Positions 6,636 to 28,972 of a DNA stretch of 64,000 nucleotides are shown here, piece by piece. The notes under the pieces are model-generated. The model did no database searches and had not been told where the DNA came from. It saw only the letters and a list, made by a program, of their open reading frames with translations. A program made the position numbers and the translations under genes. This stretch comes from Chloroflexota bacterium (GTDB lineage: Bacteria; Chloroflexota; UBA11872; VXNJ01): positions 126,085 through 190,084 of the forward strand of contig OZ242360.1 of NCBI GenBank assembly GCA_965208775.1, read 5' to 3'. Positions within the stretch are counted from its first letter, which is position 1; every line of letters begins with the position of its first letter.

Positions 6636-6655
6636 TGTCCACCTTCCGAAAAAAT

Positions 6656-6673
6656 ACCGACTGGTCAGTCGGT
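6656..6673. promoter_or_regulatory. Candidate TetR operator: perfect 8-bp inverted repeat ACCGACTG-GT-CAGTCGGT.
   Basis: Read directly from the sequence. It is flanked by A/T runs and sits immediately upstream of the TetR start codon. Confidence 0.5.
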
Positions 6674-6844
6674 TTTTAACCCGCGGCGAACCCGTTTGTC
6701 AAAGGAACTATGTCACCGCCGATACAGCCTTGTACACCCGCCAGCTTCAACTGTTACCGGACACCTCCACCTCCGCACGCATACCGCGCATTCCTTCGAC
6801 AGCGGGAGATCCAGTCGAGCTCGACGCGTCAGCTCTGGTCGAAT

Positions 6845-13091: not shown

Positions 13092-13163
13092 GCCGGTGTG
13101 GCTCAATGGCAGAGCGGCGGTTTTGTAAACCGCAGGTTGTGGGTTCGACTCCCACCGCCGGCT
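13092..13163 (+). tRNA. tRNA-Thr (anticodon UGU).
   Basis: Manual cloverleaf: acceptor GCCGGTG/CGCCGGC (one G-U pair), D-arm GCTC/GAGC, anticodon stem GCGGT/ACCGC with loop TTTGTAA, T-arm GTGGG-TTCGACT-CCCAC. CCA is not encoded. Confidence 0.85.
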
Positions 13164-13393
13164 CCGATACCCTGGAAATCGCGCTAAAGCACGCCAACGT
13201 GACTTGTGGACCCAGCCTCATCTCTCAAGTCTGCGACCATTTCCTATTCGCAACGAAGCCAACTTCTTGTGTCGCCACACTAGTCGGCTTGGGCATACGC
13301 CATCCGGAGCTATAGAAGCCGACTGAATAGCACGACGGCATTTTAGAAAGCGAGCGGCGTCGAGAACTTCCCAGACTGCCGGCCCGCGATCAA

Positions 13394-15685
13394 TCAACTT
13401 GACTCATAACTGTAGACCCTATCCTCAAGCAGTCCGAGGTCGAGTCCAAAGTAGTAGTCGAGTATTGCCCTGAAGTGGTTGACCGAAGTAATCGAGGGAT
13501 ACACGGCACTCTCGCCGCCCTCGGGAAGCAGGAACGCGGCCAGGATGTCGTGGCTGATCGAGGGATCGTGTTTTTCGTGTCCGTGGTCTCCGGCGATGAC
13601 GATTATCGGAGTTTGTTCCGAGTTGTCGAGTATCGCGTCGACGACTTCCAACATCTGGCCGTTCAGCCAAATGAGCTGACCATAGAATGCTCCGGGAACC
13701 GAGGGATCGTGGTCATCCTGCCAGCTTGCCCCGTCGAACCTGACGTTTCCATGCTTGTCGAACGAATAGGGGCCATGCGGTTTTATCAAATGCGCGACTA
13801 CAAACTTCGGCCCGTCCCAGATTCCGACTTCCTTCATGAATTCCAGCCAATCGAGAGCCCGTTGCGGATGCCCGAAACCGTAGGACCTGTGTTGCGTGCC
13901 AAATTCGGGCGAGAGGAGCAGATTCGCCACGGTTGTCTGCAAGAGCGCCGCGGCAAATCTGCCAGACAGGTGAGTTGTCCGTTCGAGCCGGAACGTTTCC
14001 CTAGTCTCCTCTCCGCTGAATAGGGTGCCCGAGGGGCTGAAGTCCACCACGACGTGCGCGGTGCTGTTGAAATTGGTCAATTCGAAACCAGAGGAGATAT
14101 GCAGATATCTATACCCAATGGTCATCAGGATTTGTCCCAATGCGTGAGCGTCTATCTGCGCTCGGAGACGTCGATAGGCCGCTTGCCTGTTGGTATCGAA
14201 GTACTCGGCGTCAACATATTCCATATTCAGGGTTGAAGTTGCTGAATGGTAAGTCCGAGCGTAGTTACTGCGAGCTTGTGGGGCCACGTAGAAGCCGCGG
14301 TTTTCCAGTTGCTGCACGAATTCGCTGTTGTCGAACTGCGGAGGCGAACCGCTCCTGGGATATTCATCCAGGATGATGTAATAGATGTCTCTAAGTTGAT
14401 CTCTTGAGAGTCTGTCCCTGGCTTCGGCGAGCCGTTCGTCGAGTCCCGGGAAACCGTCGAAAGGGTCAACGTCCTGTGGTCGGCTGCCTGCGTAGAAATC
14501 GGTGGCGATCTGGTAAATGGGCAAGAGAACAAGCAAAACGCTGCCCAGGTTGAGCGTCAGACCCAGCTTGCGCGTGAGGCCGGGATGTCGAGTTAGGAGC
14601 GCCCCGAGACCGAGAACGGTCGGTACGCCTAACCCAAGAAGATACCTGTCATCGGCGTGATCGCCCAGGGCGACGTATATGTGACCGTATGAGAAGAACG
14701 CGATTCCGAGCAGACCCGTAAGCGCCGCCGCCACGGTGGCTGTTTTGAAGATGAGCCGCAATGCCACGAAGGTGACCGTGACGGCCGCCATGGTGACCGC
14801 GAAGACGGCGATCGACTCGGAGACGCGAAACAAGAACAGGTTGCTGGAGAGATAGTGCAATATCGCGAAGGCGGGTATCAGCCACGGAAACACGTAGATG
14901 GCGCGCCGCGCGGTTGAAGTGCGAACAGACGATGCCTGATCCACACGGCGGCCCGGCGGTAGTCGCAGGACCGCCCGAACCCGGCCGGCCAGGGACACAA
15001 ACCCAATTCGCATCCTCCGCGTGGTGTTGCGCAGAGGTCGGGAGACCAGAGGCTGCGACAGTACCGTTATCGCGATTGCCAGCGCTGCGGCCGCCGGCGC
15101 TCCCGCCAGGCGCGCAAGGTCCGGCGTCGATCCCTCGAGAGCGGCCTGCCAACCCCTGCCCTTCCAGACGAACTCATGCGCGAGCGGGCCGTACTCCGTC
15201 GGCTGACGATGTATGGTTACAGACGCGCCAGTTCCCGGCTCGCTGGTCCCGAACATTACGTTGTAGTCCAGCTTCCGTTCCGCTCCGCGCTCCGTTGATA
15301 CCCAGAGTTGCAACGTGAGTTCTTCGCCGGGGGCAGGCCGGTAGGGCGGGAAAACGAGAACATACGCATCCAATTGCTTGCTCGCCCTGATTGAAACTTT
15401 GACCTGCCGCACAGGCTCTTCGGCATCTCCGCCAAGCAACGAGGCGACGACCGGCGCCTCGCCGCGGTCAAAGCGGGCGCGGGCCCAAATACGGACCTCT
15501 GAAACGATGTCGACGTCGTCCAGGACTTGCTCGACTGTTTGGTCGGGCCAGACGGGATCCGTGAGGTCGATAACCCCGCCCGAAGACCGCGAAACGAAGC
15601 TTGTTTGGGGCAGCAGGCTCGCCAGCAGCCCAATACTCACCAGAGCGAGAACAGCCGGTATCAGCCGGGAACGAACCATGTTCAC
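13394..15685 (-). CDS. LtaS-like paralog 1: membrane-anchored alkaline-phosphatase-superfamily (LtaS/sulfatase-like) protein.
   Basis: The 763-aa ORF has an N-terminal signal anchor, a ~170-aa ectodomain, about five TM helices, and a C-terminal domain with ILDEYPRSG and IIVIAGDHGHE motifs typical of LtaS/sulfatase-like phosphotransferases. Confidence 0.7.
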   Translation of the reverse strand: MNMVRSRLIPAVLALVSIGLLASLLPQTSFVSRSSGGVIDLTDPVWPDQTVEQVLDDVDIVSEVRIWARARFDRGEAPVVASLLGGDAEEPVRQVKVSIRASKQLDAYVLVFPPYRPAPGEELTLQLWVSTERGAERKLDYNVMFGTSEPGTGASVTIHRQPTEYGPLAHEFVWKGRGWQAALEGSTPDLARLAGAPAAAALAIAITVLSQPLVSRPLRNTTRRMRIGFVSLAGRVRAVLRLPPGRRVDQASSVRTSTARRAIYVFPWLIPAFAILHYLSSNLFLFRVSESIAVFAVTMAAVTVTFVALRLIFKTATVAAALTGLLGIAFFSYGHIYVALGDHADDRYLLGLGVPTVLGLGALLTRHPGLTRKLGLTLNLGSVLLVLLPIYQIATDFYAGSRPQDVDPFDGFPGLDERLAEARDRLSRDQLRDIYYIILDEYPRSGSPPQFDNSEFVQQLENRGFYVAPQARSNYARTYHSATSTLNMEYVDAEYFDTNRQAAYRRLRAQIDAHALGQILMTIGYRYLHISSGFELTNFNSTAHVVVDFSPSGTLFSGEETRETFRLERTTHLSGRFAAALLQTTVANLLLSPEFGTQHRSYGFGHPQRALDWLEFMKEVGIWDGPKFVVAHLIKPHGPYSFDKHGNVRFDGASWQDDHDPSVPGAFYGQLIWLNGQMLEVVDAILDNSEQTPIIVIAGDHGHEKHDPSISHDILAAFLLPEGGESAVYPSITSVNHFRAILDYYFGLDLGLLEDRVYSYESS
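14240..15685. repeat. Inverted-repeat arm A (~1.45 kb), ~95% identical to the reverse complement of 26702..28147.
   Basis: Codons 1–~483 of paralogs 1 and 2 are near-identical. I aligned DNA stretches by eye and found few mismatches. The end coordinates are approximate. Confidence 0.8.
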
Positions 15686-15689
15686 CGTC

Positions 15690-16940
15690 TTATGGCAGCT
15701 CCCACCTAACGGTGTGCACGACCGACCGACCGGATTCCTCCGGCTCCTGGTAGTAGGGAGACAGCGCGTAGATCGTTAGCAGCGTGCCGTCGGCCAGCTG
15801 ACGGGTAGTCGGCCAGCCGTTGCTCGGACCGTTGCTGATCGATAGCTGGATGGGATGATCGAAGTCCCAAGTCTCGCCCAGATCGTTACTCACGACCGCG
15901 CCCGTGCCGAACGGCAGGTGATAGTTGAGATGGGTGCAGAGGATTCGCCCGTCGCTGAGCAACGCCAGATGCGCGTGAACTTCGCTGTAGTTGAGGAAGT
16001 CCCTCGGTTCGGTCCAGGTCCGGCCTCCGTCGGCGCTTTCCATCAACACGATATGCCCGGCTGCGTGATCGTTGGGTACCGAGCCGGGCGGGTGAGGCGG
16101 GGAAGTGCCCTCGATGGGATGGTCATACTCGAACCGGCTTGTCGCCAGCAGCCGTCCGTCGGGAAGGCTCAGGAAGTCGGACTCCACGAACATCGCGAAC
16201 GAGTCGTCCCAGACCTCGACCGGCTCCAGTTCGGACCAGCTTCGGCCACAGTCCGAAGAGTGGCGCAGCCATGCGCGGCAGTTGGCGGGCGCATCAGTTT
16301 TGGACCATCCTTCGTGGGTGCCCACGCAGCGCATGATCGAGATCGTGCCATCGGACTGGAAGATCGGCCCGCGGACTATCGATACCGACTGATAGCTCTC
16401 GCGCGGCGTTTCCATCGGAGTCATGGTCCACGTATGGCCGCCGTCTTCCGAGCGGCACACCGCATCGACACTTTCCCCCGTGAACAGCAGGCTTCCGTCG
16501 TCGAGGCACGTGAGCGAGTTTTCCTTGCCCAGCAGCGGCGTGTGCTCCATCGGTTCCCAACTGGCGCCGTTATCCCTGGAGATGTGCAGACGCACCGGCC
16601 AGTTCTTGAGCTGCGGCTCCTCGCCGAAGAACTCGTTCGGCGTGCCCGTCGGATACGGACTCGCTATCGAAGGATGAAGCATGTCGACCGGCGAAGCGAT
16701 GATGTCTCCATTGGGAAGGATGGCCATACTCGCCTTGTAAAGTCCCCGACCACCCATCTGCGACCTGACGGCGGGACGCTTCGAGAGCTGCGCGACCGAG
16801 TGGTAGTCCAGTCCCGTGTAACCGGTCAATCCGGCAACGTAATACTCCCCCACGCCGGCTGGTGACCATTCAAACGGCTCGGTTGGTTTTTCGATCATAT
16901 TGCCCTCCCACATCATCTGCCCGATGGCCGAAAGTACCAC
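15690..16940 (-). CDS. BNR/Asp-box repeat exo-α-sialidase-like glycoside hydrolase. GTG start at 16940, or ATG at 16916.
   Basis: Four Asp-boxes are present (SRDNGASW, SEDGGHTW, SSDCGRSW, SADGGRTW). A 4-bp gap to the downstream paralog-1 gene suggests co-transcription. Confidence 0.7.
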   Translation of the reverse strand: MVLSAIGQMMWEGNMIEKPTEPFEWSPAGVGEYYVAGLTGYTGLDYHSVAQLSKRPAVRSQMGGRGLYKASMAILPNGDIIASPVDMLHPSIASPYPTGTPNEFFGEEPQLKNWPVRLHISRDNGASWEPMEHTPLLGKENSLTCLDDGSLLFTGESVDAVCRSEDGGHTWTMTPMETPRESYQSVSIVRGPIFQSDGTISIMRCVGTHEGWSKTDAPANCRAWLRHSSDCGRSWSELEPVEVWDDSFAMFVESDFLSLPDGRLLATSRFEYDHPIEGTSPPHPPGSVPNDHAAGHIVLMESADGGRTWTEPRDFLNYSEVHAHLALLSDGRILCTHLNYHLPFGTGAVVSNDLGETWDFDHPIQLSISNGPSNGWPTTRQLADGTLLTIYALSPYYQEPEESGRSVVHTVRWELP

Positions 16941-17109
16941 GCCCCGCCGTAATCCGGCGGATTGCCAATGGGTCGAATGAGTCTGGTGCTAAATTACGCG
17001 TCATGCAACTGATTTCATCGAGCGCGCTTCCTTTCTCGCCCGCGCCCAGCCGTCACCCGTCCATCCGTGCGCCACGACGCACATGCCGCTCAGGAGGCAG
17101 TCAGCCGTC

Positions 17110-18594
17110 ATGAATTTCATAGTCGTCGTCTGCGATACCCTGCGCCGCGACCACGTCAGCGCATACTCCGCGCAGCCCGAGCGCTGGGAATCGGGCGGCG
17201 AGTGGGCGGTGGAGACACCTCACTTCGACCGTTTCGCCCGCAATGCCTGCGTGTTCGAAAACGCCTACATTGGATCGTTTCCGACCGTCCCCAACCGACG
17301 AGAGATATTCACCGGACGGTCGGTTTTCACCTACGCCGAGTGGGCGCCGCTTCCGGCTTCCGAGATTGTCATCTCCGAAACGCTCGCAAACGCCGGCTAC
17401 ACGACCATGCTCATTGCCGACACTCCGCACATCTTGCAGCGAGGTTTTCACTTCGACCGCGGATTCACCGCCTGGGATTGGATCAGGGGGCAAGAAAACG
17501 ACCGGCTTCGCACGGACCCGCAGCGAGTGGAGTTGCCCTCCGCGCCCCATAAGCTGCGGGAGCCGGAAATGACCATGGGGCAATACCTTCGCAACATCGC
17601 CGACTGGCAGGAGGAAAGCGACCGGTTCTGCCCGACCACCTTCACGCGGGCCAGCCATTGGCTGGAGCAAAACGCCAAGAACAAGCCGTTCTTCCTACAC
17701 GTCGACACATTCGACCCCCACGAACCCTGGGACCCCCCGCAATCCGATGCGGACCGCTACGACCCCGGCTACGAAGGCGAGCGCGTCACTTACCCGGTAT
17801 ACGGCTACTGGGAAGGCTTCCTGAGCCCGGCTGAGCTGCGACATTCGCACGCTCTCTATTGCGGCGAGGTCTCCATGGTCGACCGCTGGTTCGGCCGGAT
17901 CCTGGACACGATGGACAGGCTCGATCTTTGGGACGACACGGCGCTTATCCTCACCTCGGACCACGGGTTCTATTTCGGCGAGCACGGAATAATCGGGAAG
18001 AGCATTATCGAGCCGAACGGACCCGTTCGGCCCCATCCGCTGCTCTCCGAGGTCGCCCGCATCCCGTTGATCGCCCATATTCCCGGCATAACCGAACCGG
18101 GAATGCGGCCCGGCGGCTATATCCAGCCGCTCGACCTGATGCCGACGTTCCTGGAGTTGGCAAACCTCGATGCGAGCGAGGTGGCGAACGGCCGGTCTCT
18201 CGTCCCGCTGATCACCGGCCAGACCGACAAGCTGCGTGAGTTTGCGGTCTCGTCGCACAGCATCTGCGTCCCGCTGGCAGGACGTCCGAGCACCATTGTC
18301 ACGCCCGACTGGACGCTAGTCTTGGGAGCGCCGCATTCGGCTTCGGAGACCGACGGCGGGGCGCAGACCGACACTGAAGTCATCGACAGCCGCCGCCGTA
18401 GAGAACAGCCCAGCGATGCCGCCACCTGCCCGCAACTCTATGACAATCACGCCGATCCCGGCATGACCAATAACGTGATCGAGGACCATCCCGACGAAGC
18501 CGGCGACCTTCGAGACATGTACATCGGCTACATCGAGTCGGTCGGAACCGCGGAGGAATATGTCGCCCCCCGCCGCCAAGCGCGGCTACATTAG
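17110..18594 (+). CDS. Sulfatase-like hydrolase (alkaline-phosphatase superfamily).
   Basis: It has VVVCDTLRRDH and LILTSDHGFYFGEHG motifs. I preferred the start at 17110 because AGGAGG lies upstream of it, whereas the 17083 ATG itself precedes that Shine-Dalgarno site. Confidence 0.75.
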   Translation: MNFIVVVCDTLRRDHVSAYSAQPERWESGGEWAVETPHFDRFARNACVFENAYIGSFPTVPNRREIFTGRSVFTYAEWAPLPASEIVISETLANAGYTTMLIADTPHILQRGFHFDRGFTAWDWIRGQENDRLRTDPQRVELPSAPHKLREPEMTMGQYLRNIADWQEESDRFCPTTFTRASHWLEQNAKNKPFFLHVDTFDPHEPWDPPQSDADRYDPGYEGERVTYPVYGYWEGFLSPAELRHSHALYCGEVSMVDRWFGRILDTMDRLDLWDDTALILTSDHGFYFGEHGIIGKSIIEPNGPVRPHPLLSEVARIPLIAHIPGITEPGMRPGGYIQPLDLMPTFLELANLDASEVANGRSLVPLITGQTDKLREFAVSSHSICVPLAGRPSTIVTPDWTLVLGAPHSASETDGGAQTDTEVIDSRRRREQPSDAATCPQLYDNHADPGMTNNVIEDHPDEAGDLRDMYIGYIESVGTAEEYVAPRRQARLH

Positions 18595-18710
18595 CTCTTC
18601 GATTTATCTCGCCACATTTGCGTGTCCACTGACAGGCCCCAAATGGCGACGGGCTAGCGGTGCGATGACCCGCTGCTTGTATTCATTCGCTCCGACTATC
18701 AATATACGGA

Positions 18711-19853
18711 TTGCGAAGTCGGGTATCAGCCGGATATTGCGGACGCGGTGAAGGAATTGCCTTGAATCGACTCAAAATCGGCGTGATCGGGTGCGGGGCC
18801 ATAGCCCAGATTCAGCACCTGCCGCATCTGCGCGAGCTTGACGACCAGTTCGAGATCGGCGGAATCTGCGACATCTCGGACTACCTCCTGGGTAAAGTCG
18901 GCGACGACTTCCACGTTCCCGCCGCCAGGCGATTCAGCGATTATCACGAGCTTCTGGCTAGCGACATCGACGGGGTGATCGTCTGCTCCTCCGGCAACCA
19001 CGTCGCGCCCACACTGGCGGCAATCGGGGCGGGCAAGCACGTGCTCGTCGAAAAGCCCGCGTGCACCACAGTCGACGAGGCCCGCGAGATGACGCGGACC
19101 GCCGAGGAGGCGGGCGTGGTTTTCATGGTGGCTTACATGAAGCGATACGACCCCGGATTCATTTTTGCCAAGCAACGGATCGCTCGCATGGGAGAAGTCA
19201 GCTTCGTGCAGGTCAATCACTTTCATCCCGACAACGAGCTGCATACCGCCGAGTTCAGGTTTCACAGGGCTATCGACATCCCTCCCGAAGCACGGGAAGC
19301 CGCCCTGGCCGAGGACAACGCCGAAGTTGACGCTGCTCTCGGATTGCAACCGGCCAGTCCTGATCAGCGAGGGGCGTTCAACCTGATACTCGGAAGCCTG
19401 ATTCACGACATCGGAAACCTCCACGGGCTGTTCGGACCGCCGGAACGCGTGCTGCATACGGAAATCTGGCTGGGCGGACGGGCCGTATCGACAATGCTGG
19501 AATACCCGGGCGGCATACGTGCCGTGATGAACTGGGTCGATCTGCCCGAATTGTGGGACTTCGAGGAGACGCTCGCCGTTTATGGAAGTCGCGAGCGTGT
19601 GACCGTATCCTTTCCTACCGGTTTCGCGCGAGGACTTACGACGGACGTCACAGTTGTCGAAATCGACGGTGAGTTGAATCCGTCGAGAAAGTTCGCGCAG
19701 TGGCACGAGAACGCGTTCAAGAACGAGCTGGCGCATTTCGGCGACTGCATCAGCAACGGCCGAGAGCCGACTACTCCCGGACGCGAAGTGATCGACGATA
19801 CGACTCTCGTTCGGGAGATCGTTCTGGCTTGGCAGGGTAATGGAGCAAACTGA
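18711..19853 (+). CDS. Gfo/Idh/MocA-family oxidoreductase. The exact start is uncertain.
   Basis: Rossmann motif LKIGVIGCGAIA is present. The stop overlaps the next start (TGATG). Confidence 0.75.
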   Translation: MRSRVSAGYCGRGEGIALNRLKIGVIGCGAIAQIQHLPHLRELDDQFEIGGICDISDYLLGKVGDDFHVPAARRFSDYHELLASDIDGVIVCSSGNHVAPTLAAIGAGKHVLVEKPACTTVDEAREMTRTAEEAGVVFMVAYMKRYDPGFIFAKQRIARMGEVSFVQVNHFHPDNELHTAEFRFHRAIDIPPEAREAALAEDNAEVDAALGLQPASPDQRGAFNLILGSLIHDIGNLHGLFGPPERVLHTEIWLGGRAVSTMLEYPGGIRAVMNWVDLPELWDFEETLAVYGSRERVTVSFPTGFARGLTTDVTVVEIDGELNPSRKFAQWHENAFKNELAHFGDCISNGREPTTPGREVIDDTTLVREIVLAWQGNGAN

Positions 19854-20503
19854 TGGGCTTCGAGGTTTTCGACTACCGAAACGATCTCAAGAACGTATTC
19901 ATATCGCCTGAGATCAGGTCGCGATTCGTCGCGATGGAGCCGGGCGAAGTCTCGCAGCGGCACAGCCACGATCTCGGGCAGGAGATATTTCTGGTCTTGC
20001 AGGGCAGAGCCGAGTTCGAAATAGAGGGGCATCGAGAAGTGCTCGGGGTGGGGCAGCTCTGCGTTGCCGAGATCGACGAACAGCACTCCATTACGTGCCT
20101 CGGTGACGAGCCGATGATCATGTACCTCTCGGTAACTCCGCACGTCGAACCCACCCACACCAGATGGGACGGGCAGGGAAACAAGCTCCAGCCCAGCTAC
20201 GGTCCTTCAACCCGGCAGGAGCGGTCCCAGCACGACCCCGCGGCCGGCTTGTCGGCGGAAGAGCTTGCGGACAAGCTGGTCTCGTCGGCGCGGAAACTCT
20301 CGCGTGGAGCCGAGGAGGCGGCGAAGGTCCTGACCAGGTCCACGCCGGAGGCGGTAACGTCTCTTGACGAACGAGATCGGGAGTCTGGAATAAAGTCGCT
20401 AAACGAAATGTGGGCGCATGTCTTCACGGTCCTTGACGACGTGAGCAAAACCGAGCTTGCCTGGAACCAGTTCTCGGCAAGAATCGACGAATCGCTTCAA
20501 TGA
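19853..20503 (+). CDS. Cupin-domain protein with a ~100-aa helical C-terminal extension.
   Basis: It has a cupin-2 core (HSHDLGQEIFLVLQGRAEFEI…). The start codon overlaps the upstream stop by 1 nt. Confidence 0.6.
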   Translation: MGFEVFDYRNDLKNVFISPEIRSRFVAMEPGEVSQRHSHDLGQEIFLVLQGRAEFEIEGHREVLGVGQLCVAEIDEQHSITCLGDEPMIMYLSVTPHVEPTHTRWDGQGNKLQPSYGPSTRQERSQHDPAAGLSAEELADKLVSSARKLSRGAEEAAKVLTRSTPEAVTSLDERDRESGIKSLNEMWAHVFTVLDDVSKTELAWNQFSARIDESLQ

Positions 20504-20560
20504 ACGCACTGTTCCCCCGGTCGAATCGCTCGCAGCCCGTCTCAGAGCGCGAGGCGTCTA

Positions 20561-22633
20561 GTGGACTCTGATTTCGCGGGAATCAGGGTCGGCGTAGACA
20601 CAGGCGGCACATTTACCGACCTGGTCGCGATGGACGTCCGAACGGGCCACGTTCAAGTCCACAAGCGGCCCTCCACTCCGGCCCAACCCAGCGACGCCAT
20701 CTTCGAGTGCATCGAGCAGATGGACAAGCCCGCGAGCCGTATCTCGTATCTCGTCGTCGGCACGACTGTAGCGATCAACTCAATCCACCAGCGGAACGGA
20801 GCGCGCGTGATCTACGTGACCACCGGGGGATTCGAAGACATCCCGTTCCTCCAAAGAACGAACCGAAGGTTCCATTACGACCTCCAATGGAGCAGCCCGA
20901 CTCCCCTGGTGCTTCGACGTGACAGCGTGGGGGTGCCCGAGCGGATCGACTATCAGGGCGAAGTGCTGATCCCGCTGACCGACGACGGGCTGAATCAGCT
21001 CGCCGCCGACATCCGGCGGCGGCTGGATGGCGCGGCGCGCGGCGACGTCGCTCTTGCGGTCAATTTCCTGTTTTCATACGTGAGTCCCGATCACGAGCTG
21101 AGGACAAGGGACTACCTGCGGAGCGAGTTCCCGGACGTTCCCGTGTCGGTGTCGTACGAAGTGGCGCCGATCTGGCGCGAATACGACCGCGCCAGCACAA
21201 CTCTGGTCGACGCTTACGTGAGACCCCTCGTGCACCAGTTCGTCCAGTCCATGCAGGCCGGTCTCGAGGAACGAGGGTTCGACCGCCACTGGTCGCTGAT
21301 GAAGTCCAACGGCGGGCAAATGCTCTCCCAATCGGCAGCCGACCGGCCTGTCCAAACGCTGCTTTCGGGTTTGTCGGGCGGCATTATCGCCGGAAGGCAT
21401 TTTGGCGAGGCGGTCGGCCAGAGCAACGTGATAACGCTCGACATGGGCGGCACCAGCACCGACGTGGGAGTCGTCGTCGACGGATTGGTTCGATATACGA
21501 CCGAATGGGAGATCGAGTTCGGACTGCCCGTCTCGGCCCCATTTATCGACATGACGACGATAGGCGCCGGCGGCGGTTCTATCGCATTCATAAACAAGGG
21601 CGGGCTGTTGCAGGTCGGCCCGTCCAGCGCGGGCGCCATCCCCGGCCCCGCCTGCTACGGCCAGGGCGGCGACCGCCCAACCGTTACCGATGCCAATATC
21701 GCCTTGGGCAGACTCAATCCCGACAACTTTCTGGGTGGCGAAGTAAAGCTGCATCCCGACCTGGCTGTGCGGGCGGTCGGGTCGCTCTCCGGGTCGCTGG
21801 GAACGTCGGTCGAAGCGACGGCCGCCGCCATCGTGGACGTCGCCAACGAGAACATCGCCGAGGCTATACGGCAGATGACGATAGGCCGGGGACTCGACCC
21901 GCGCGAATTCGCTATCGTCGCATTTGGCGGGGCGGGGCCGCTCCACGCGGCGGCCATCGCGCGGTCTATCGGAGTCGAGCAGGTCATTGTCCCTCCGCAT
22001 CCGGGACTGACCTCCGCTTTCGGAACCTTGCTCGCCGATCTTCGCGTCGACAAGACATGGACGAACATAGTCCGCTCCGACCGCCTCGATCCCAAAGCAA
22101 TCGACGACCGGCTTCAAGGTCTGGTTCTCGATGCGACCGAGGACCTTCGACGCGAAGGCTATGGGGGAGTGCCGACCCTCCGGCGCTCGGTAACAATGCG
22201 CTACCTTGGGCAGAACTACGAGGAAGAAATACCGATCCCGGCCGGCCCGATCACCGCCGAATCCGCGCGCGATCTGCTCGAATCGTTCCATCAGCACTAC
22301 GAGCAGATTTACGGCTACCGGATCGCCGACGAAATCATCGAGATGGTCCAGTTCAACGTGACTGTCATAGGCAGGACAGACAATCCGAGGTTCCCCGAAA
22401 TCGAGTCCGGGGCTGACGGCGCCCCAGTCGGGACAAGATCGGTCCTGTTCGATGGACAATACACTGCCGATTGTCCAATCTACGACCGTGAGGATTTAGC
22501 GCCCAATCAGAAAATCGAAGGTCCGGCGATAATCGAGGAACTTGATTCGACCACGTTCTTGCGGCCCGGCGATTCGCTAACCGTCACGCGCGACGGCACC
22601 GCGATTGTCCAAATTGATTCGACAGCCGATTGA
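20561..22633 (+). CDS. Hydantoinase/oxoprolinase A-family subunit (HyuA-like; acetone-carboxylase β-like).
   Basis: The N-terminal IRVGVDTGGTFTD motif and 690-aa length match the family. Confidence 0.85.
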   Translation: MDSDFAGIRVGVDTGGTFTDLVAMDVRTGHVQVHKRPSTPAQPSDAIFECIEQMDKPASRISYLVVGTTVAINSIHQRNGARVIYVTTGGFEDIPFLQRTNRRFHYDLQWSSPTPLVLRRDSVGVPERIDYQGEVLIPLTDDGLNQLAADIRRRLDGAARGDVALAVNFLFSYVSPDHELRTRDYLRSEFPDVPVSVSYEVAPIWREYDRASTTLVDAYVRPLVHQFVQSMQAGLEERGFDRHWSLMKSNGGQMLSQSAADRPVQTLLSGLSGGIIAGRHFGEAVGQSNVITLDMGGTSTDVGVVVDGLVRYTTEWEIEFGLPVSAPFIDMTTIGAGGGSIAFINKGGLLQVGPSSAGAIPGPACYGQGGDRPTVTDANIALGRLNPDNFLGGEVKLHPDLAVRAVGSLSGSLGTSVEATAAAIVDVANENIAEAIRQMTIGRGLDPREFAIVAFGGAGPLHAAAIARSIGVEQVIVPPHPGLTSAFGTLLADLRVDKTWTNIVRSDRLDPKAIDDRLQGLVLDATEDLRREGYGGVPTLRRSVTMRYLGQNYEEEIPIPAGPITAESARDLLESFHQHYEQIYGYRIADEIIEMVQFNVTVIGRTDNPRFPEIESGADGAPVGTRSVLFDGQYTADCPIYDREDLAPNQKIEGPAIIEELDSTTFLRPGDSLTVTRDGTAIVQIDSTAD

Positions 22634-22662
22634 GCCTGCGTGACGCCCGAACATGAGCCAGC

Positions 22663-24465
22663 ATGAAGACTAGCGGCGAAATGTCGGCAACCGATCTCGT
22701 ATCGATGACCGTCGTTTACAACCGTCTCGTCGGAATTGTCGAGGAGATGGGCACGACAATGATGCGCGCGTCGTACTCCCCGATCTTCAGCGAGAGCCTC
22801 GACTTCTCATGCGTGCTGTTCGGCCGAGACGCAAACATGCTCGCCCAGACCGAGTTCTCGCCAGCCCAAGTTGGAGCCATCAGGTTCGTCGTCAAGTGGC
22901 TTATTGCGGAAATTGGCGAAGATAACCTGAAGCCGGGCGACGTCGTCGTGCACAACGACCCTTACCGCGGCGGCGCGCACATGCCCGAGCACGTCGTTAT
23001 CAAGCCGGTCTACTACAAGGGCGAGTTGTTCGGTTACGTGGCCAACATCGCCCACATGGTCGAGATCGGGGGAATGGCAGTCGGCGGATTCGCCGCCACC
23101 GCGACCGAGGTCTATCAGGAGGGTCTGAGACTCCCGCCAGTCTGGCTGATGCGAGAAGGCGAGTACAACCACGATATATGGCGCATCGTCATGGCGAACC
23201 ATCGCGCGCCGCGGTACTCGTGGGGAGACCTGCATGCCATGCTCGCGTCGCTGGACATCGCCGAAAAGCGCGTCCACGAGCTGCTCGACGCCTACGGCAT
23301 GGAGCGGATTGCGACTATCAGCGCCCAGCTTCAGGACTACGCCGAGCGCTGGATGCGGGAAGAGCTGCGCACCATTCCCGACGGCGAGTACACCTTCGAA
23401 GACCACATGGAGGACGCCAGCGATCCGCCCATGAAAGATTGGGTGCGGCTGAGAGTGGTAGTCGACGACGGCAGCATCATCGCCGACTTCACCGGAAGCG
23501 ACCCGCAGGGACCTCACGTCCTTAACTGCACTTACGGGGTCACTGCCTCCGGCGTCTACAACGCCATATTCAATCTCGTCGACGACGACATTCCTCACAA
23601 CGAAGGTTCCTACCGCCCCATCACCGTCATCGCGCCCCCCGGAACCATCACCAACGTCATGGAGCCGGGACCGTCGGTCGGCGGGAATACCGAGACGCAT
23701 CCCCGGCTGTGGGAGATCGTCCTCGGCGCGATGTCGAAGGCCGTCCCGGACCGCGTTGCCGCAGCCACCGGCGGCACCTCGTGCAACTTCCTGTTCGGCG
23801 GCGTACATCCGCACACCGGCCGCTTTTACGCGCACTATCACTTCGACGGCGTTGGCTGGGGAGGACGGTCGCACGCGGACGGAAACGACAATCTGTGCGT
23901 TCCCAACGGCAATTGCCGCGCCACGCCGGTGGAGATATTCGAGACCCGTTATCCCTTCGTCGAGTGGTCGTACCGGCTGCGCAACGATTCTGGCGGCCCG
24001 GGCGAGCATCGCGGCGGATTGGGCAGCGAGCGCGTTCTGGAGGTCCGAGCGCCGGAGATTAACGTCTCGGCACTGTATGACAGGATGGTCAGTCCGCCGT
24101 GGGGGCTGTTCGGGGGCGGAGACGCGGCAACTTCATCGCTGCTCGTAAGACGCGTGGGCGACGACAAGTACAGGACATTCCGCGAGGCCTATGGCACCAA
24201 GAGTAACTCCCGCATCGCCAACATCAAGTTGAAGCGCGGCGACCGCGTGATGCTTTGCAGCTCCGGCGGAGGCGGATTCGGGCGTCCGACCGACCGTCCG
24301 GCCGAGCTGGTGCTCGAAGACGTTCTGGACGGATACGTGTCGGTCGAAGCGGCCCGCGATCTTTACGGAGTCGAAATCGAGAGTTCCAACGGCGAGACCG
24401 TGCTCAACGACGACAAAACCGAGGCGCACCGCACCGCATCGCGCCCGGAAGGTGGAGCTTCGTGA
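22663..24465 (+). CDS. Hydantoinase B/oxoprolinase-family subunit (HyuB-like; acetone-carboxylase α-like).
   Basis: The 600-aa ORF is HyuB-type (…RLPPVWLMREGEY…, DPYRGGAHMPE…) and lies immediately downstream of HyuA. Confidence 0.85.
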   Translation: MKTSGEMSATDLVSMTVVYNRLVGIVEEMGTTMMRASYSPIFSESLDFSCVLFGRDANMLAQTEFSPAQVGAIRFVVKWLIAEIGEDNLKPGDVVVHNDPYRGGAHMPEHVVIKPVYYKGELFGYVANIAHMVEIGGMAVGGFAATATEVYQEGLRLPPVWLMREGEYNHDIWRIVMANHRAPRYSWGDLHAMLASLDIAEKRVHELLDAYGMERIATISAQLQDYAERWMREELRTIPDGEYTFEDHMEDASDPPMKDWVRLRVVVDDGSIIADFTGSDPQGPHVLNCTYGVTASGVYNAIFNLVDDDIPHNEGSYRPITVIAPPGTITNVMEPGPSVGGNTETHPRLWEIVLGAMSKAVPDRVAAATGGTSCNFLFGGVHPHTGRFYAHYHFDGVGWGGRSHADGNDNLCVPNGNCRATPVEIFETRYPFVEWSYRLRNDSGGPGEHRGGLGSERVLEVRAPEINVSALYDRMVSPPWGLFGGGDAATSSLLVRRVGDDKYRTFREAYGTKSNSRIANIKLKRGDRVMLCSSGGGGFGRPTDRPAELVLEDVLDGYVSVEAARDLYGVEIESSNGETVLNDDKTEAHRTASRPEGGAS

Positions 24466-24475
24466 ACGGCAATTC

Positions 24476-24701
24476 GATGGAAGAGCGTGACGAGCGTCAG
24501 ACCCACGAGGGGCGCTGGGAACAGCTGAACCGAAGCTGGTGGGACACCAAGGTCGTCAACTGCGAGATGTGCGGCCAGATGATCCCTCGCGACGTGTGGA
24601 AAAGCGCCGACGGCCACTCGTTTTGCTCAGTCGAATGCGATGATCTCTACCGCTCCTATTGGCTGCCGCGCTACGGCGGGAAGACGACGACACACGACTA
24701 G
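24476..24701 (+). CDS. Small (~75-aa) putative Zn-ribbon protein, possibly a γ-like subunit of the hydantoinase/carboxylase.
   Basis: It has a C4 pattern CEMCGQ…CSVEC and starts 11 bp after the HyuB stop. The gene order A–B–small matches acetone carboxylase acxABC. The six-frame track shows a longer overlapping form. Confidence 0.45.
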
Positions 24702-24777
24702 CAGCGCAGTCCCTCGGGGCTTGTCGTAACCGGGGCGCACACGATGTTGGAGGGGAGGCCTCGCCACCAGGCACCGG

Positions 24778-26313
24778 CTATTGGCGCGAAGCGGAACTCA
24801 GCCTCGTCATCAGATAGAGCCTGCGACCGGAATTTGCGATTGGGACGGCTCGTTCAGTAGAGAAGTATCGGCCAAACGCCTTTTCGAAGCTCTCCCGGTT
24901 ATAGCCTGGAAAAGAGTGATTCCTCAGGGCCAGCAGACGCTCGACTTTGGGGTCATCACGTGGAACATACTCGATGATCAACGACTTGCCCAGCGATGCG
25001 AAGAACTCGGCGAGCCTGCTGAGGGGCACGTTGTTGGTTATGGCCAGATGATGGACCAGGGCCAGCGCGATTACCGCATCCGTCGGCCCTCGATCCAGGA
25101 GCGACATGCGCTCCGTATTGGCCCATCCACTGGCGGGGCTAGGATTCGAAACGTCGGCAACTATTGGATACACCGTGGCATCTCGACTGCGGGCGACCTC
25201 CCGATAGCTGATTTCGATGGCTCCCGGATCGCTATCGATCGATATCACGCGCACACCCTGTTCAGCCGCGATCCGGGTGAATTCACCGGTGTTGGCTCCG
25301 ATATCCCAAGCCTCCACGGGGCCAACGCTGCGAAGATACTCGGCTACCAGCCCCTTCTTGCTATCGAATCCGGCGTCGTCGTAGCTCTCGCCCTGGTAAT
25401 AGTCTGACCACTCGCTCACCTCGGGATCCCAGCCGAGACTACTCACTGTCGATCTCAGATTGTTCAGGATGGTAAGCAGCCCTTTACGGCTCATCCGTCC
25501 TCGAAAGTCCTTGCGCGTGCTTGCTTTGCCCGCCTGGCGGACCTGCAATTTGGCGTGTGAGAACAGATGCATCGCAAGGCCGGGCCGTAAGCGACTTCGC
25601 AGCGGCAACAGGCGAGCCGCCAGCGCCAGCGGTATTCCGTCAAGATGCACCTCAAGTAAGCGGCCCAGGCTTACGTCCCGAAGCGCCATCAGAGCCAAAG
25701 GCGCCAGGAAATGCTGGCAAAACTGCTTGTACGCCACCCACGGGAAACCCTCTTCGTATTCCTCGAACGATAAAGTGTCCACAAGCGCGGGGCGGCCGCC
25801 GTGGAGCTGAATGTTGTAGGCGCTGGCATCCTTGAGCGACATCCCGAACTCGACAGCCCGAATCTGGATATCCAGCGTGACCAGAGCCGAGTCTCTAAGC
25901 TGGCTGAAGCACCATTCATACGGGTAGGAGATGAACGGTACTTGAGCCGGCTTCAGAATCCTGTAAGCCTGCTCGTCCTCCAGCCCGGCGGGCACCTCCT
26001 CATGAGGCAGCAGCAATCCATCCCGCACAAGGCCGTCATAGAGGCCGGAAGCCATCAGACGGTCATAGACCGGCCCATATGACTTGGCGACGTGACGGAA
26101 GACGCACCCGTCCCGCCGGAAGACGAATCCCGCCGGATCGCGAAACGATCCGGCTATCGCTTCATCGATCCCTATCGTCACCCGGCCCATCCACGGCTCT
26201 GCGATCAGCCTCGGTCGATTCCACATCCTCAAGGCTGGACACGGTGCCTCCGTCACCAGACGAGCGCCGGAAGATCCCGAGAATCCTGCGGAACCACAGC
26301 CCCACCGAAACAA
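24778..26313 (-). CDS. Two-domain protein: an N-terminal ~330-aa domain with a protein-kinase-like catalytic-loop pattern, fused to a C-terminal class I SAM-dependent methyltransferase.
   Basis: The C-terminal region carries SAM motif I (WDIGANTGEFTRIAAEQGVRVISIDSD). The N-terminal region has DASAYNIQLHGGRPALVDTLSFEE, resembling the HxD…N / D(F/L)(G/S) motifs. The start is probably internal (~26229 or 26190). Confidence 0.6.
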   Translation of the reverse strand: MFRWGCGSAGFSGSSGARLVTEAPCPALRMWNRPRLIAEPWMGRVTIGIDEAIAGSFRDPAGFVFRRDGCVFRHVAKSYGPVYDRLMASGLYDGLVRDGLLLPHEEVPAGLEDEQAYRILKPAQVPFISYPYEWCFSQLRDSALVTLDIQIRAVEFGMSLKDASAYNIQLHGGRPALVDTLSFEEYEEGFPWVAYKQFCQHFLAPLALMALRDVSLGRLLEVHLDGIPLALAARLLPLRSRLRPGLAMHLFSHAKLQVRQAGKASTRKDFRGRMSRKGLLTILNNLRSTVSSLGWDPEVSEWSDYYQGESYDDAGFDSKKGLVAEYLRSVGPVEAWDIGANTGEFTRIAAEQGVRVISIDSDPGAIEISYREVARSRDATVYPIVADVSNPSPASGWANTERMSLLDRGPTDAVIALALVHHLAITNNVPLSRLAEFFASLGKSLIIEYVPRDDPKVERLLALRNHSFPGYNRESFEKAFGRYFSTERAVPIANSGRRLYLMTRLSSASRQ

Positions 26314-26701
26314 CTCCGCCCAGCACCGCTGCGATCAGGATCTGTATCAGAAAGCTGCCGCTTCCGGGATCGAGATAAGGCAGAAATAGCAGCCTAACGA
26401 CGCTCAGGCTCGAGATCGAATTTCTACCCCCACCGCGAGCGTAATTCGACACATCACTCGCTGTCCCGGACCTGTTTCTAACCATCCAATACTCCCGCGA
26501 AGAGCGCTTTCTCACACCATTATGCATTTTGACGCGTAACGACGGTAAATGACCGCTTTCAGTCGGCCTTGGTAGGAAGCACAACGACGCAACTTCAATG
26601 GCGAAACACTGGTGGAAGTAAAATCCACCGACTTTATACATGGATTTCAGACAAGCGCCCCACCGGAAGCCAGAGTGGTAGATCGATGACACATCAGCTT
26701 C

Positions 26702-28147
26702 TTGCTTAGATCTCGCTTGCGGCTGATACCGGCTGTTCTCGTTCTGGTAAGTATTGGGCTGCTGGCGAGCCTGCTGCCCCAAACAAGCTTCGTTTCGCGG
26801 TCTTCGGGTGGGGTTGTCGACCTCACGGATCCCATCTGGCCCGACCAAACAGTCGAGCAAGTCCTGGACAATGCCGACATCGTTTCGGAAGTCCGTATTT
26901 GGGCCCGCGCCCGCTTTGATCGCGGCGAGGCGCCGGTCGTCGCCTCGTTGCTGCGCGGACAGGATGAACAGCCTGTGCGTCAGGTCAAAGTGTCAATTCG
27001 GGCGAGCAAGCAATTGGATGCGTATGTTCTCGTTTTCCCGCCCTACCGGCCTGGCCCCGGCGAAGAACTCACGTTGCAGCTCTGGGTCTCAACGGAGCGC
27101 GGAGCGGAACGGAAGCTGGACTACAACGTAATGTTCGGGACCAGCGAGCCGGGAACTGGCGCGTCTGTGACCATACATCGTCAGCCGACGGAGTACGGCC
27201 CGCTCGCGCATGAGTTCGTCTGGAAGGGCACGGGTTGGCAGGCCGCTCTCGAGGGATCGACGCCGGACCTTGTGCGCCTGGTCGGCGCATTAGCGGCAGC
27301 CGCCTTAGCCGTTGCCGTAACAATACTGTCGCATCCTCTGGTGTTCCGACCTCTGCGCAACACCGCGCGGAGGATGCGACTTGGGTTTGTGTCCCTGGCC
27401 GGCCGGGTTCGGGCGGTCCTGCGACTACCGCAGGGCCACCGTGTGGCTCAAGCATCGTCTGTTCGCACTTCAACCGCGCGGCGCGCCATCTACGTGTTTC
27501 CGTGGCTAATACCCGCCTTCGCGATATTGCACTATCTCTCCAGCAACCTGTTCTTGTTTCGCGTCTCCGAGTCGATCGCCGTCTTCGTGGTCACCATGGT
27601 GGCCGTCACGGTCACGTTCACGGTATTGCGGCTCATCTTCAAGACGGCCGCAGTGGCGGCGGCGCTTACGGGTCTGCTCGGAATCGCGTTCTTCTCATAC
27701 GGTCACATATACGTCGCGCTGGGCGATCACGCCGATGACAGGTATCTTCTTGGATTAGGCGTACCGACCGTTCTCGGTCTCGGGGCGCTCCTAACTCGAC
27801 ATCCCGGCCTCACGCGCAAGCTGGGTCTGACGCTCAACCTGGGCAGCGTTTTGCTTGTTCTCCTGCCCATTTACCAGATCGCCACCGATTTCTATGCAGG
27901 CAGCCGACCGCAAGACGTTGACCCTTTCGACGGATTCCCGGGACTCGAGGAACGGCTAGCCGAAGCCAGGGACAGACTCTCAAGAGATCAACTTAGAGAC
28001 ATCTATTACGTCATCCTGGATGAATATCCCAGGAGCGGTTCGCCTCCGGAGTTCGACAACAGCGAATTCGTGCAGCAACTCGAAAACCGCGGCTTCTACG
28101 TGGCCCCACAAGCTCGCAGTAACTACACGCGCACGTACCAGTCGATT
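26702..28147. repeat. Inverted-repeat arm B (~1.45 kb), partner of 14240..15685.
   Basis: See arm A. Identity ends close to the start codons on both arms, and the upstream regions differ. Confidence 0.8.
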
Positions 28148-28972
28148 CCCTCATCCCTGAACGCTAGCTACTTCGGTGAACTGGCTGGAGACGAGGAGCC
28201 CGCTCGACTTCAGGATATTGGAACAGTCGATGACCACCTTCTTGGCCGAATTCTGAAAGCTCTAGGGTACAGATACGTGCACGTTTCGTCGGGATACTTC
28301 TCGACCAAGACAAACCAAAACGCCGACCTTGTCGTTGACTTTGCGCCATCCGGAACCCTTCTCTCTGGGGCCGAAGCCCCGAAGGCGCTTGAAGAGACGA
28401 CACGCTTGTCAAGCAAGTTTGCAAACACTTTCCTGCGAACAACCGCAGCCCAGCCGTTCGTGTCCAAGGATTTCGACGTTGAGCCTGACGGCATTTACGG
28501 CTGGGGCAACCCATTCCGGACCCTGGCCTGGATCGAGTTCATGAAAGAAGCCGCGGCTGTCGATGGGCCAAAGTTCATATTCGCCCACCTTCTAAAACCG
28601 CATTCCCCTTACTCCTTCGATAGATTTGGAGCCATCAGCACGGATTTAGCCGGCTGGAGCGACGATCACGATCCCACGGTAAACAGCGCATTTTACGGTC
28701 AGCTCATATGGCTCAACGGTCAATTGCTCGAAGTTATCGACGCTGTACTCGACGACTACGACGAACCGCCGATTATCGTCGTCGCGGCAGACCATGGGCG
28801 CAAAGGTCCTTTCCGCAACGAGATCCTGGCGGCGTTCCTGCTTCCCGACGGCGGCGAGAGCGCCGTGTATCCCTCAATTACCTCAGTCAACCATTTCAGG
28901 GCAATCCTGGATTACTACTTCGAACTGGACCTCGGTCTGCTGGAGGACAAGGTCTATAGTCACCCGGGTTGA
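26702..28972 (+). CDS. LtaS-like paralog 2 (TTG start), a mosaic of paralogs 1 and 3.
   Basis: Residues 1–~483 are ~95% identical to paralog 1, and the C-terminal catalytic domain is closer to paralog 3. The DHG motif reads VVAADHGRKG rather than IAGDHGHE. Confidence 0.7.
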   Translation: MLRSRLRLIPAVLVLVSIGLLASLLPQTSFVSRSSGGVVDLTDPIWPDQTVEQVLDNADIVSEVRIWARARFDRGEAPVVASLLRGQDEQPVRQVKVSIRASKQLDAYVLVFPPYRPGPGEELTLQLWVSTERGAERKLDYNVMFGTSEPGTGASVTIHRQPTEYGPLAHEFVWKGTGWQAALEGSTPDLVRLVGALAAAALAVAVTILSHPLVFRPLRNTARRMRLGFVSLAGRVRAVLRLPQGHRVAQASSVRTSTARRAIYVFPWLIPAFAILHYLSSNLFLFRVSESIAVFVVTMVAVTVTFTVLRLIFKTAAVAAALTGLLGIAFFSYGHIYVALGDHADDRYLLGLGVPTVLGLGALLTRHPGLTRKLGLTLNLGSVLLVLLPIYQIATDFYAGSRPQDVDPFDGFPGLEERLAEARDRLSRDQLRDIYYVILDEYPRSGSPPEFDNSEFVQQLENRGFYVAPQARSNYTRTYQSIPSSLNASYFGELAGDEEPARLQDIGTVDDHLLGRILKALGYRYVHVSSGYFSTKTNQNADLVVDFAPSGTLLSGAEAPKALEETTRLSSKFANTFLRTTAAQPFVSKDFDVEPDGIYGWGNPFRTLAWIEFMKEAAAVDGPKFIFAHLLKPHSPYSFDRFGAISTDLAGWSDDHDPTVNSAFYGQLIWLNGQLLEVIDAVLDDYDEPPIIVVAADHGRKGPFRNEILAAFLLPDGGESAVYPSITSVNHFRAILDYYFELDLGLLEDKVYSHPG

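Follow-up and report, generated by a model that had tools for sequence, protein, structure and literature searches.

A 64,000-nucleotide (nt) stretch of a Chloroflexota bacterium (assembly GCA_965208775.1, contig OZ242360.1, positions 126,085 to 190,084; hereafter the window) carries two paralogous genes, P1 and P2, which lie in opposite orientation, share nearly the same 5′ two-thirds and thereby form a long inverted repeat around an 11-kb gene block. This locus raises the question of whether the block is an invertible segment, as a sequence-only reading of the window had proposed, or whether the arms of the repeat are alike for another reason. Our analysis favors, with a probability of roughly 0.8, partial gene conversion, or concerted evolution, between the inverted paralogs, which would be a new example of a known process. 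The genes and repeats concerned, including a third paralog, P3, are as follows.

13394..15685, minus strand: P1, putative membrane and alkaline-phosphatase-superfamily paralog 1 (open reading frame (ORF) list; 763 amino acids (aa) from GTG)
14226..15674, minus strand: left arm of the inverted repeat, core 14261-15674 (repeat search, direct count)
26702..28972, plus strand: P2, paralog 2 (ORF list; 756 aa from TTG)
26713..28161, plus strand: right arm of the inverted repeat, core 26713-28126, read as P1-derived sequence replacing P2's own 5′ part
29080..31350, plus strand: P3, third paralog, in tandem after P2 (ORF list, repeat search)
13409..13557, minus strand: conserved 3′ tail of P1 (149 nt, 86% identical to the P2 tail)
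28812..28960, plus strand: conserved 3′ tail of P2, pairing with the P1 tail at 13409-13557

The database calls P1 (P0124) as 761 aa from an ATG at 15679 and P2 (P0004, 100% identical) as 751 aa from 26717, and it places both on a single contig of 3,239,824 bp. A repeat search of the window returned the arms as 1449 nt each, ungapped, 94% complementary and spaced by 11,038 nt, which bears out the ~1.45-kb inverted repeat that had been described in the 5′ two-thirds of P1 and P2. Direct counting gave 94 mismatches and no indels between the arms, or 93.5% identity, close to the ~95% previously estimated by eye; the longest perfect runs measure 108, 80, 79, and 65 nt. The homogeneous core corresponds to nt ~12-1425 of the P1 coding sequence (14261-15674 / 26713-28126) and is 94.4% identical, and the left arm spans P1 codons ~5-475. 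Identity begins a few codons after the start codons, and the 140 nt upstream of the two starts are unrelated (35% identical), in agreement with the earlier statement that identity stops at the start codons and that the upstream regions differ. Beyond codon ~475, P1/P2 identity falls to ~50-59%. The 5′ part of P3 is 77-79% identical overall to the arms.

Close relatives of the P1-P3 locus were all found in Chloroflexota metagenome-assembled genomes (MAGs). The contig ctg511422l (ENA ERZ24894577) was reconstructed by merging loci L081 and L084 across a 5,636-nt identical overlap; JAPOYC01 (GCA_026706785.1, contig JAPOYC010000013.1), for which L169 and L167 were merged, belongs to a more distant species than ctg511422l and forms one species with L001, L003, and DAOUHN01. 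L080 (JAPOVO010000347.1, 5,941 bp) comes from MAG GCA_026708165.1, as do L082 and L085. Full-length P1 orthologs were found in L001, L002, L079, ctg511422l, and JAPOYC01. Bin names and sample tags suggest that several relatives derive from the demosponge study of Robbins et al. (PMC8163846), the data of which are Illumina 2×151 bp reads (PMC8163846), and contigs of the ctg type appear, from their names and many frameshifts, to be long-read assemblies. A scan of JGI metagenomes with the arm protein yielded only relatives of ≤37% identity, which are uninformative on the junctions.

The similarity of the arms extends to silent positions. Synonymous divergence (dS) between P1 and P2 is 0.14 in codons 5-478, and it is saturated in codons 479-712, where the proportion of synonymous differences (pS) reaches 0.75; in 40-codon windows, pS rises from 0.16 to 0.91 at codon ~480. 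The ratio of nonsynonymous divergence (dN) to dS in the arm is 0.26. Because synonymous sites are homogenized too, selection at the protein level is inadequate to account for the identity of the arms. Among 4095 pairs of full-length family members, those with C-terminal parts 50-60% identical show a median N-terminal identity of 55% (95th percentile 70%), and P1/P2 pairs, at 93-98% N-terminal identity, are the most extreme outliers.

A quartet test on P1 and P2 of the window and of ctg511422l scored informative sites as grouping the four sequences by genome, by locus, or crosswise, with the following counts.

Arm: 26 by genome, 0 by locus, 1 cross
140 nt upstream: 0 by genome, 73 by locus, 0 cross
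Catalytic middle: 1 by genome, 205 by locus, 1 cross
3′ tail: 0 by genome, 14 by locus, 0 cross

Consistently, arm-arm identity inside ctg511422l is 98.3%, and the orthologous arms of the window and ctg511422l are 95.1% (P1-P1) and 93.8% (P2-P2) identical. Because arm sites group by genome (26:0) and flanking sites by locus, the pattern shows gene conversion by which the arms exchanged sequence after the two strains split, and only within the arm. The sequence-only reading was therefore right in viewing the arms as substrates of recombination. The 3′ tail, with dS ~0.64, dN ~0.03, and quartet sites that are all by locus, is kept by selection without recent conversion.

JAPOYC01 indicates the direction of the exchange. 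Its full-length P1 ortholog is 94% identical to window P1 upstream, 92% in the arm, and 90% in the middle part. The gene in its P2 slot has an upstream region orthologous to that of P2 (77%) and an arm only 69% identical to P1, and the locus keeps the gene order and orientation of the window without a long high-identity inverted repeat. Since JAPOYC01 combines a full-length P1 ortholog with a P2-slot arm only 69% identical to P1, P1 is the probable donor and P2 the probable recipient. The closest match to the catalytic part of P2 is the first of two tandem copies in OZ244593 (73%); this copy matches P1 at 73% in the arm, and identity between the two tandem copies is 74%. The first conversion probably took place later than the split from the JAPOYC01 lineage, with later rounds following.

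The ends of the tract lie within conserved sequence. It starts at about codon 5-7, where P2 retains its own LRSRLRL start (compare LRSRPRL in JAPOYC01), and it ends directly after the family-invariant block FDNSEF...GFYVAPQARSNY475, so that it includes the first metal-ligand strand (D440) and stops six residues before the putative nucleophile S481. These ends appear to sit where homology between the paralogs runs out, as expected of homologous recombination. A scan of 60 ORFs across the 64-kb window found no domain of a recombinase, integrase, or transposase, and none of the intergenic gaps between 13 and 31.5 kb is long enough for a recombinase gene. Tract ends in conserved blocks and the failure to find a recombinase together suggest dependence on RecA or homologous recombination.

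Smaller exchanges are superimposed on the main tract. Site patterns are mosaic: in some stretches P1 equals P3 and P2 differs, and in others P2 equals P3 and P1 differs. The 5′ part of P3 is itself mosaic, with patches of pS 0.13-0.18 to P1, and the L080 arm carries a P3-like 5-codon deletion. One patch is specific to P2.

27267..27320, plus strand: P2-specific patch with ~20 changes over 55 nt; P1, P3, and the other P1-type arms compared all agree here

A donor for this patch was sought among all loci compared without success, which suggests a short conversion from an unseen donor. Taken together, the patterns indicate probable small-scale exchange between the arms and either P3 or unseen donors.

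Homologous recombination between the paralogs produced the arms as a by-product, and they are probably not the sites of a dedicated switch. In the sequence of events that we propose, ~1.41 kb of P1 (codons ~5-475) would have been copied onto the oppositely oriented P2, overwriting a 5′ part originally ~70% identical. The tract would halt at the invariant ...ARSNY block, ahead of the putative nucleophile and the hypervariable catalytic core. The first event would have followed the split from JAPOYC01, more conversion would have occurred after the window and ctg511422l lineages separated, and small patches would also have been traded with P3 or unseen donors. The outcome would be one shared membrane module on two different catalytic heads.

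The remaining question is the behavior of the DNA between the arms, which contains the following genes.

15686..26701: block between the arms (Pfam, gene calls in relatives, start-codon mapping)
15690-16940, minus strand: BNR/sialidase-like gene (Pfam; stop 4 nt from the P1 start)
17083-18594, plus strand: sulfatase (Pfam)
18711-19853, plus strand: Gfo/Idh/MocA (Pfam)
19853-20503, plus strand: cupin (Pfam)
20561-22633, plus strand: hydantoinase A (Pfam)
22663-24465, plus strand: hydantoinase B (Pfam)
24462-24701, plus strand: Zn-ribbon-like small protein (Pfam / gene calls in relatives)
24778-26181, minus strand: methyltransferase-like gene (Pfam / gene calls in relatives)
26162-26485, minus strand: 107-aa small protein (gene calls in relatives)

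Pfam agrees with the list of block genes, from sialidase-like to methyltransferase, that had been read from the sequence. The arrangement of this block in the available assemblies was as follows.

Window (3.24-Mb contig): both arms examined; reference arrangement
ctg511422l: both arms examined; parental, with P1, block, methyltransferase, P2, and P3 in window order and orientation
L002, L079: P1 arm and both its flanks only; parental
L001, L003: P1 arm and both its flanks only; parental, short-read contigs
JAPOYC01 (L167+L169), DAOUHN01 (L168): gene order compared, and for JAPOYC01 alone the full sequence as well; order unchanged, ancestral state
L080 (JAPOVO010000347.1): P1-side arm and both its flanks; recombinant

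The parental arrangement is present in seven other assembled contigs, representing four distinct genomes or strains; JAPOYC01, which has no repeat, fixes the ancestral order only. The window and these seven contigs thus show one arrangement, and the sole exception is the 5.9-kb Illumina contig L080. The suggestion that the segment could exist in both orientations in a population finds no good support.

Several points nevertheless weigh against conversion as the whole account, and L080 underlies a rival in which RecA-type crossovers flip the 11-kb block at appreciable frequency, both orientations exist in the population, and the catalytic halves are swapped between the BNR and P2-promoter contexts. 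L080 is from a strain 96% identical to the window and runs from Gfo through sulfatase, BNR, and the P1 upstream region into a P1-type arm. The ~200 nt beyond the arm are of the P2 type: 90-nt windows there match P2 at 84-92% and P1 at ~50%. The end of the contig abuts L082, which carries the C-terminal part of P2 and then P3. In the same MAG, L085 carries a P1-type C-terminal part beside the acetyltransferase gene, starting 160 nt past the arm, and the parental P1 junction is unseen. This chimeric junction is the product expected from an inversion crossover, so inversion may be commoner than we assume. The arms contain no indels, so that the reading frame would be preserved in crossover products: a crossover would put the catalytic half of P2, together with P3, behind BNR, and the catalytic half of P1 behind the P2 promoter. 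The earlier proposal that inversion would swap the 3′ catalytic halves stands to this extent, in-frame chimeras being expected and L080 showing such a junction, but its premise of both orientations is not supported. Conversion is evident here, and in the tuf genes discussed below conversion and inversion are coupled (PMC6735719). Moreover, RecA dependence and the direction of individual events are points that we infer, an initial conversion between ~70%-identical sequences is mechanistically hard, and the repeat could instead have begun as a non-homologous, inverted partial duplication that became fused to P2, although the 26:0 pattern still requires later conversion. An alternative interpretation, in which L080 belongs to a conversion tract extended enough to revert to P1-type sequence in L085, was rejected, as the two contigs overlap by ~90 nt (alignment coordinates) with different sequence types. 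For L080 itself, doubt arises because it is a short-read contig with an error-laden tip (8 mismatches in the last ~17 nt), because it ends in the stretch most variable between strains, and because the reciprocal junction (methyltransferase side, arm, and P1 C-terminal part) was not found in the OXG11 MAG among cluster members or with a P1 C-terminal query, by which only L085 surfaced and no contig combined an arm with the methyltransferase side. If the L080 strain resembles ctg511422l in having arms that are ~98% identical, collapse of the repeat and exit along an arbitrary path would be a familiar artefact, and the 2×151-bp data (PMC8163846) and an end ~200 nt past the arm fit such a path in a mixture of strains. 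For L080, a mis-join across a collapsed repeat is no less likely than a true inversion, and we regard a true biological junction as doubtful, though with a real chance of being correct. Against frequent inversion stand the parental junctions in all apparently long-read contigs (the 3.24-Mb window contig, ctg511422l, L002, L079) and also in the short-read L001, L003, L167/L169, and L168, as well as the missing reciprocal junction, the missing recombinase, and the 6.5% divergence of the arms in the window. Owing to this divergence, the arms are not especially efficient RecA substrates, as they had been called. An invertible segment is accordingly an unlikely explanation. A more ambitious version, in which the arms form a recombinase-free RecA-driven switch in sponge-symbiont Chloroflexota that flips an 11-kb glycan-degradation block, with L080 as a captured inverted allele, would re-assort a shared membrane module with two surface-enzyme heads, one downstream of the sialidase-like gene and the other, together with P3, under its own promoter, and gene conversion would keep the arms similar enough for switching; we consider it a long shot.

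Two further explanations deny that recombination took place at all or that the structure is real, and both are hardly credible. Without recombination, purifying selection on the membrane module, or a recent whole-gene duplication with fast divergence of the catalytic domain, would have to produce the pattern. The membrane module is indeed more conserved than the catalytic core across the family, and dN/dS in the arm is below 1. However, such an account conflicts with the contrast between low and saturated dS, the abrupt boundary, the grouping of arms by genome and flanks by locus, and the existence of orthologs of the P2 upstream and catalytic parts in genomes with an arm only ~70% identical to P1; dS and the quartet test rule out that purifying selection made the arms alike. 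As for mis-assembly of the repeat or of the block orientation, near-identical repeats are a known hazard and L080 itself may be chimeric, but the P1-block-P2-P3 structure and its orientation recur in ctg511422l, the P1 junction recurs in L001, L002, L003, and L079, the 94 differences between the arms rule out a duplicated consensus, and the window lies within a 3.24-Mb contig. The assembly hazard raised by the sequence-only reading is thus improbable for the window, since ctg511422l reproduces the structure. Partial conversion between the inverted paralogs therefore remains the preferred reading; occasional RecA-type inversion is plausible but unproven.

Among known systems, site-specific invertible segments and shufflons such as Hin/Gin, the R64 shufflon, and the hsdS "ivr" loci of type I restriction systems come with a cognate recombinase gene, and their two orientations are easy to observe. 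The present locus resembles them in that the inverted repeats lie in paralogous coding sequence and inversion would re-pair a constant 5′ part with alternative 3′ parts. It differs in having long, diverged repeats and an orientation that stays the same from assembly to assembly, and the 64 kb yielded no recombinase. The locus lacks the defining features of site-specific invertible elements, as a recombinase was not found and a pair of orientations was not demonstrated.

The closest analogue is the co-evolution of tufA/tufB in Salmonella/E. coli; in Salmonella these are 1185-nt inverted genes that undergo RecA-dependent conversion at 10^-5 to 10^-6 per generation, with mismatch repair shortening the conversion tracts (PMC5485169). 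According to a passage in PMC6735719 citing Hughes 2000, up to 50% of tuf recombination events lead to inversion, with a fitness cost. Both systems have kilobase gene-derived inverted repeats that are homogenized by intrachromosomal conversion, a crossover between which would invert the intervening DNA, and neither has a dedicated recombinase (PMC5485169, PMC6735719). Because the tufA/tufB precedent couples conversion and inversion, rare 11-kb inversions would be expected here through crossover resolution of the same intermediates, with the parental orientation persisting. In contrast to the tuf genes, conversion here is partial (the 5′ two-thirds), the 3′ parts are ~59% identical, and crossing over would alter the encoded proteins; the arms lie 11 kb apart rather than 762 kb; and arm divergence is 6.5% (1.7% in the sister strain) compared with ~1%. 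Concerted multigene families include rRNA operons, pilE/pilS, and Rhs/CDI C-terminal replacement. Like these, the locus has mosaic tracts, a conserved 5′ region common to the paralogs that leads into variable 3′ ends, and tandem slots filled by non-orthologous genes in different strains; it differs in showing no toxin/immunity logic and no silent cassettes, all three copies being full-length ORFs.

The nature of the encoded proteins was examined with an AlphaFold model of P2 (mean predicted local distance difference test score (pLDDT) 70.7). The model consists of a transmembrane (TM) helix (2-22), a beta-sandwich (27-177), about seven helices (187-400, mostly pLDDT <50), and a catalytic domain (410-756, pLDDT ~90). 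Foldseek against the PDB matched this model to S1 sulfatases, to the phosphoethanolamine transferases EptA, MCR-1, and ICR-Mc, and to LtaS (rank 39), all with probability 1.0 and 10-14% sequence identity. PF00884 (Sulfatase) matched P2 at 29.3 bits (cut-off 25) and P3 at a sub-threshold 23.8 bits; Pfam gave no match on P1, NCBIfam returned no family for P1, P2, or P3, and PDB sequence searches with phmmer (P2) and with a 26-sequence profile yielded nothing significant. Residues D440, S473, H634, D697, and H698 are invariant in the family and S481 is near-invariant. In the alignment, P2 and P3 have S-I-P-S-S around the putative nucleophile and P1 has S-A-T-S-T, without Arg at +4. The C/S-x-P-x-R nucleophile motif of formylglycine (S1) sulfatases is absent from P1, P2, and P3. 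The predicted structure supports an assignment of P1-P3 as membrane-anchored enzymes of the alkaline-phosphatase superfamily, and they are paralogs of an uncharacterized Chloroflexota family, each combining a signal/TM helix, a beta-sandwich, a membrane module of several helices, and an extracytoplasmic catalytic domain of the alkaline-phosphatase/sulfatase fold. They resemble EptA/MCR-1, LtaS, and OpgB in having an N-terminal membrane module followed by an extracytoplasmic sulfatase-fold domain, whereas S1 sulfatases score equally, the P1-P3 family carries an additional beta-sandwich of ~150 aa behind its first TM helix, and, in contrast to the EptA/LtaS type, the nucleophile context is neither the sulfatase motif nor a proven Thr-type site. 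The earlier label "LtaS-like" was too specific: the alkaline-phosphatase/sulfatase superfamily fits, and no LtaS family model matches.

The P3 slot varies among strains. Its occupant is non-orthologous between the window and ctg511422l or JAPOYC01 (arm 73%, catalytic part 64-65%), and the upstream intergenic region is 92% identical. In MAG GCA_026708165.1, an IS1595-family transposase gene (L082 1659-2543) cuts P3 short after ~305 codons. The tandem slots seem to behave as replaceable cassettes.

Within the block, BNR and P1 are probably co-transcribed, because the BNR stop (15690) lies 4 nt from the P1 start. The P2 upstream region measures 216 nt and is shared divergently with the 107-aa gene, and P3 starts 107 nt after P2; a promoter and terminator scan of 12.8-31.7 kb found no more sites than in shuffled sequences. 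The single long "methyltransferase" ORF (24778-26313) corresponds to two overlapping genes in the calls of relatives, a 107-aa small hydrophobic protein, which is a singleton cluster in a collection of 15 billion proteins, and a 467-475-aa protein with a weak methyltransferase match. Two lineage-specific insertions were seen in the block. One, in the JAPOYC01/COS3_bin_10 species, places ~6 kb between the Zn-ribbon and methyltransferase-like genes (L003 13734-19705), including a class-I methyltransferase and an internal 1.5-kb direct repeat at 66% identity; the other places ~1.9 kb of ABC-transporter fragments between the sulfatase and Gfo genes (ctg511422l 5355-7266).

Outside the block, the neighborhood comprises futalosine-type menaquinone genes, glycan-degrading enzymes, and large membrane proteins without a Pfam match; mobile-element genes were not found. 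One tRNA gene adjoins P1.

13092-13165, plus strand: tRNA-Thr(TGT), flanked by the acetyltransferase gene and by P1, whose stop is 228 nt away

OZ244593 and OZ253578 lack P1, and there tRNA-Thr and the BNR gene are direct neighbors (L004 3874-4001; L044 4711-4787). P1 therefore appears to be a lineage-specific single-gene insertion, or a loss, at a tRNA-flanked junction without an integrase. The acetyltransferase gene (11801-12913, plus strand) contains two GNAT domains and internal direct repeats, and its domain number varies among relatives, which have 182 + 346 aa (L001), 357 aa (L079), or 545 aa and three domains (L085). On the other side, a 582-aa gene (31524-33272, minus strand) is an internally deleted paralog of the adjacent 930-aa membrane protein (33285-36077, minus strand); the two agree at 89% over the first 80 aa, the deletion removes aa ~81-413, and identity over the remainder is 58%. 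The high 5′ identity of this pair looks like a second partial homogenization next door. A further paralog of the 930-aa protein lies at 40333-43101 (32% identical), ctg511422l has three ~920-aa copies at the site of the 582-aa/930-aa pair, and none of these proteins has a Pfam match. AT skew is strong (0.26-0.35) at 35001-36000, 39001-40000, and 42001-43000, over large minus-strand membrane-protein genes, consistent with the T-rich coding strands of polytopic membrane proteins.

For practical purposes, chimeras are likely at this locus in short-read MAG assemblies. Should the L080 junction prove true, the locus would represent a rare recombinase-independent inversion that alters protein products; otherwise, the locus reflects ordinary genome dynamics. 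It is a clean natural case of partial conversion between inverted paralogs in an uncultured phylum, for which genomes reveal the putative donor and recipient, both ends of the tract, and the unconverted state in an outgroup, and it shows how a membrane module can stay uniform while catalytic heads diverge.

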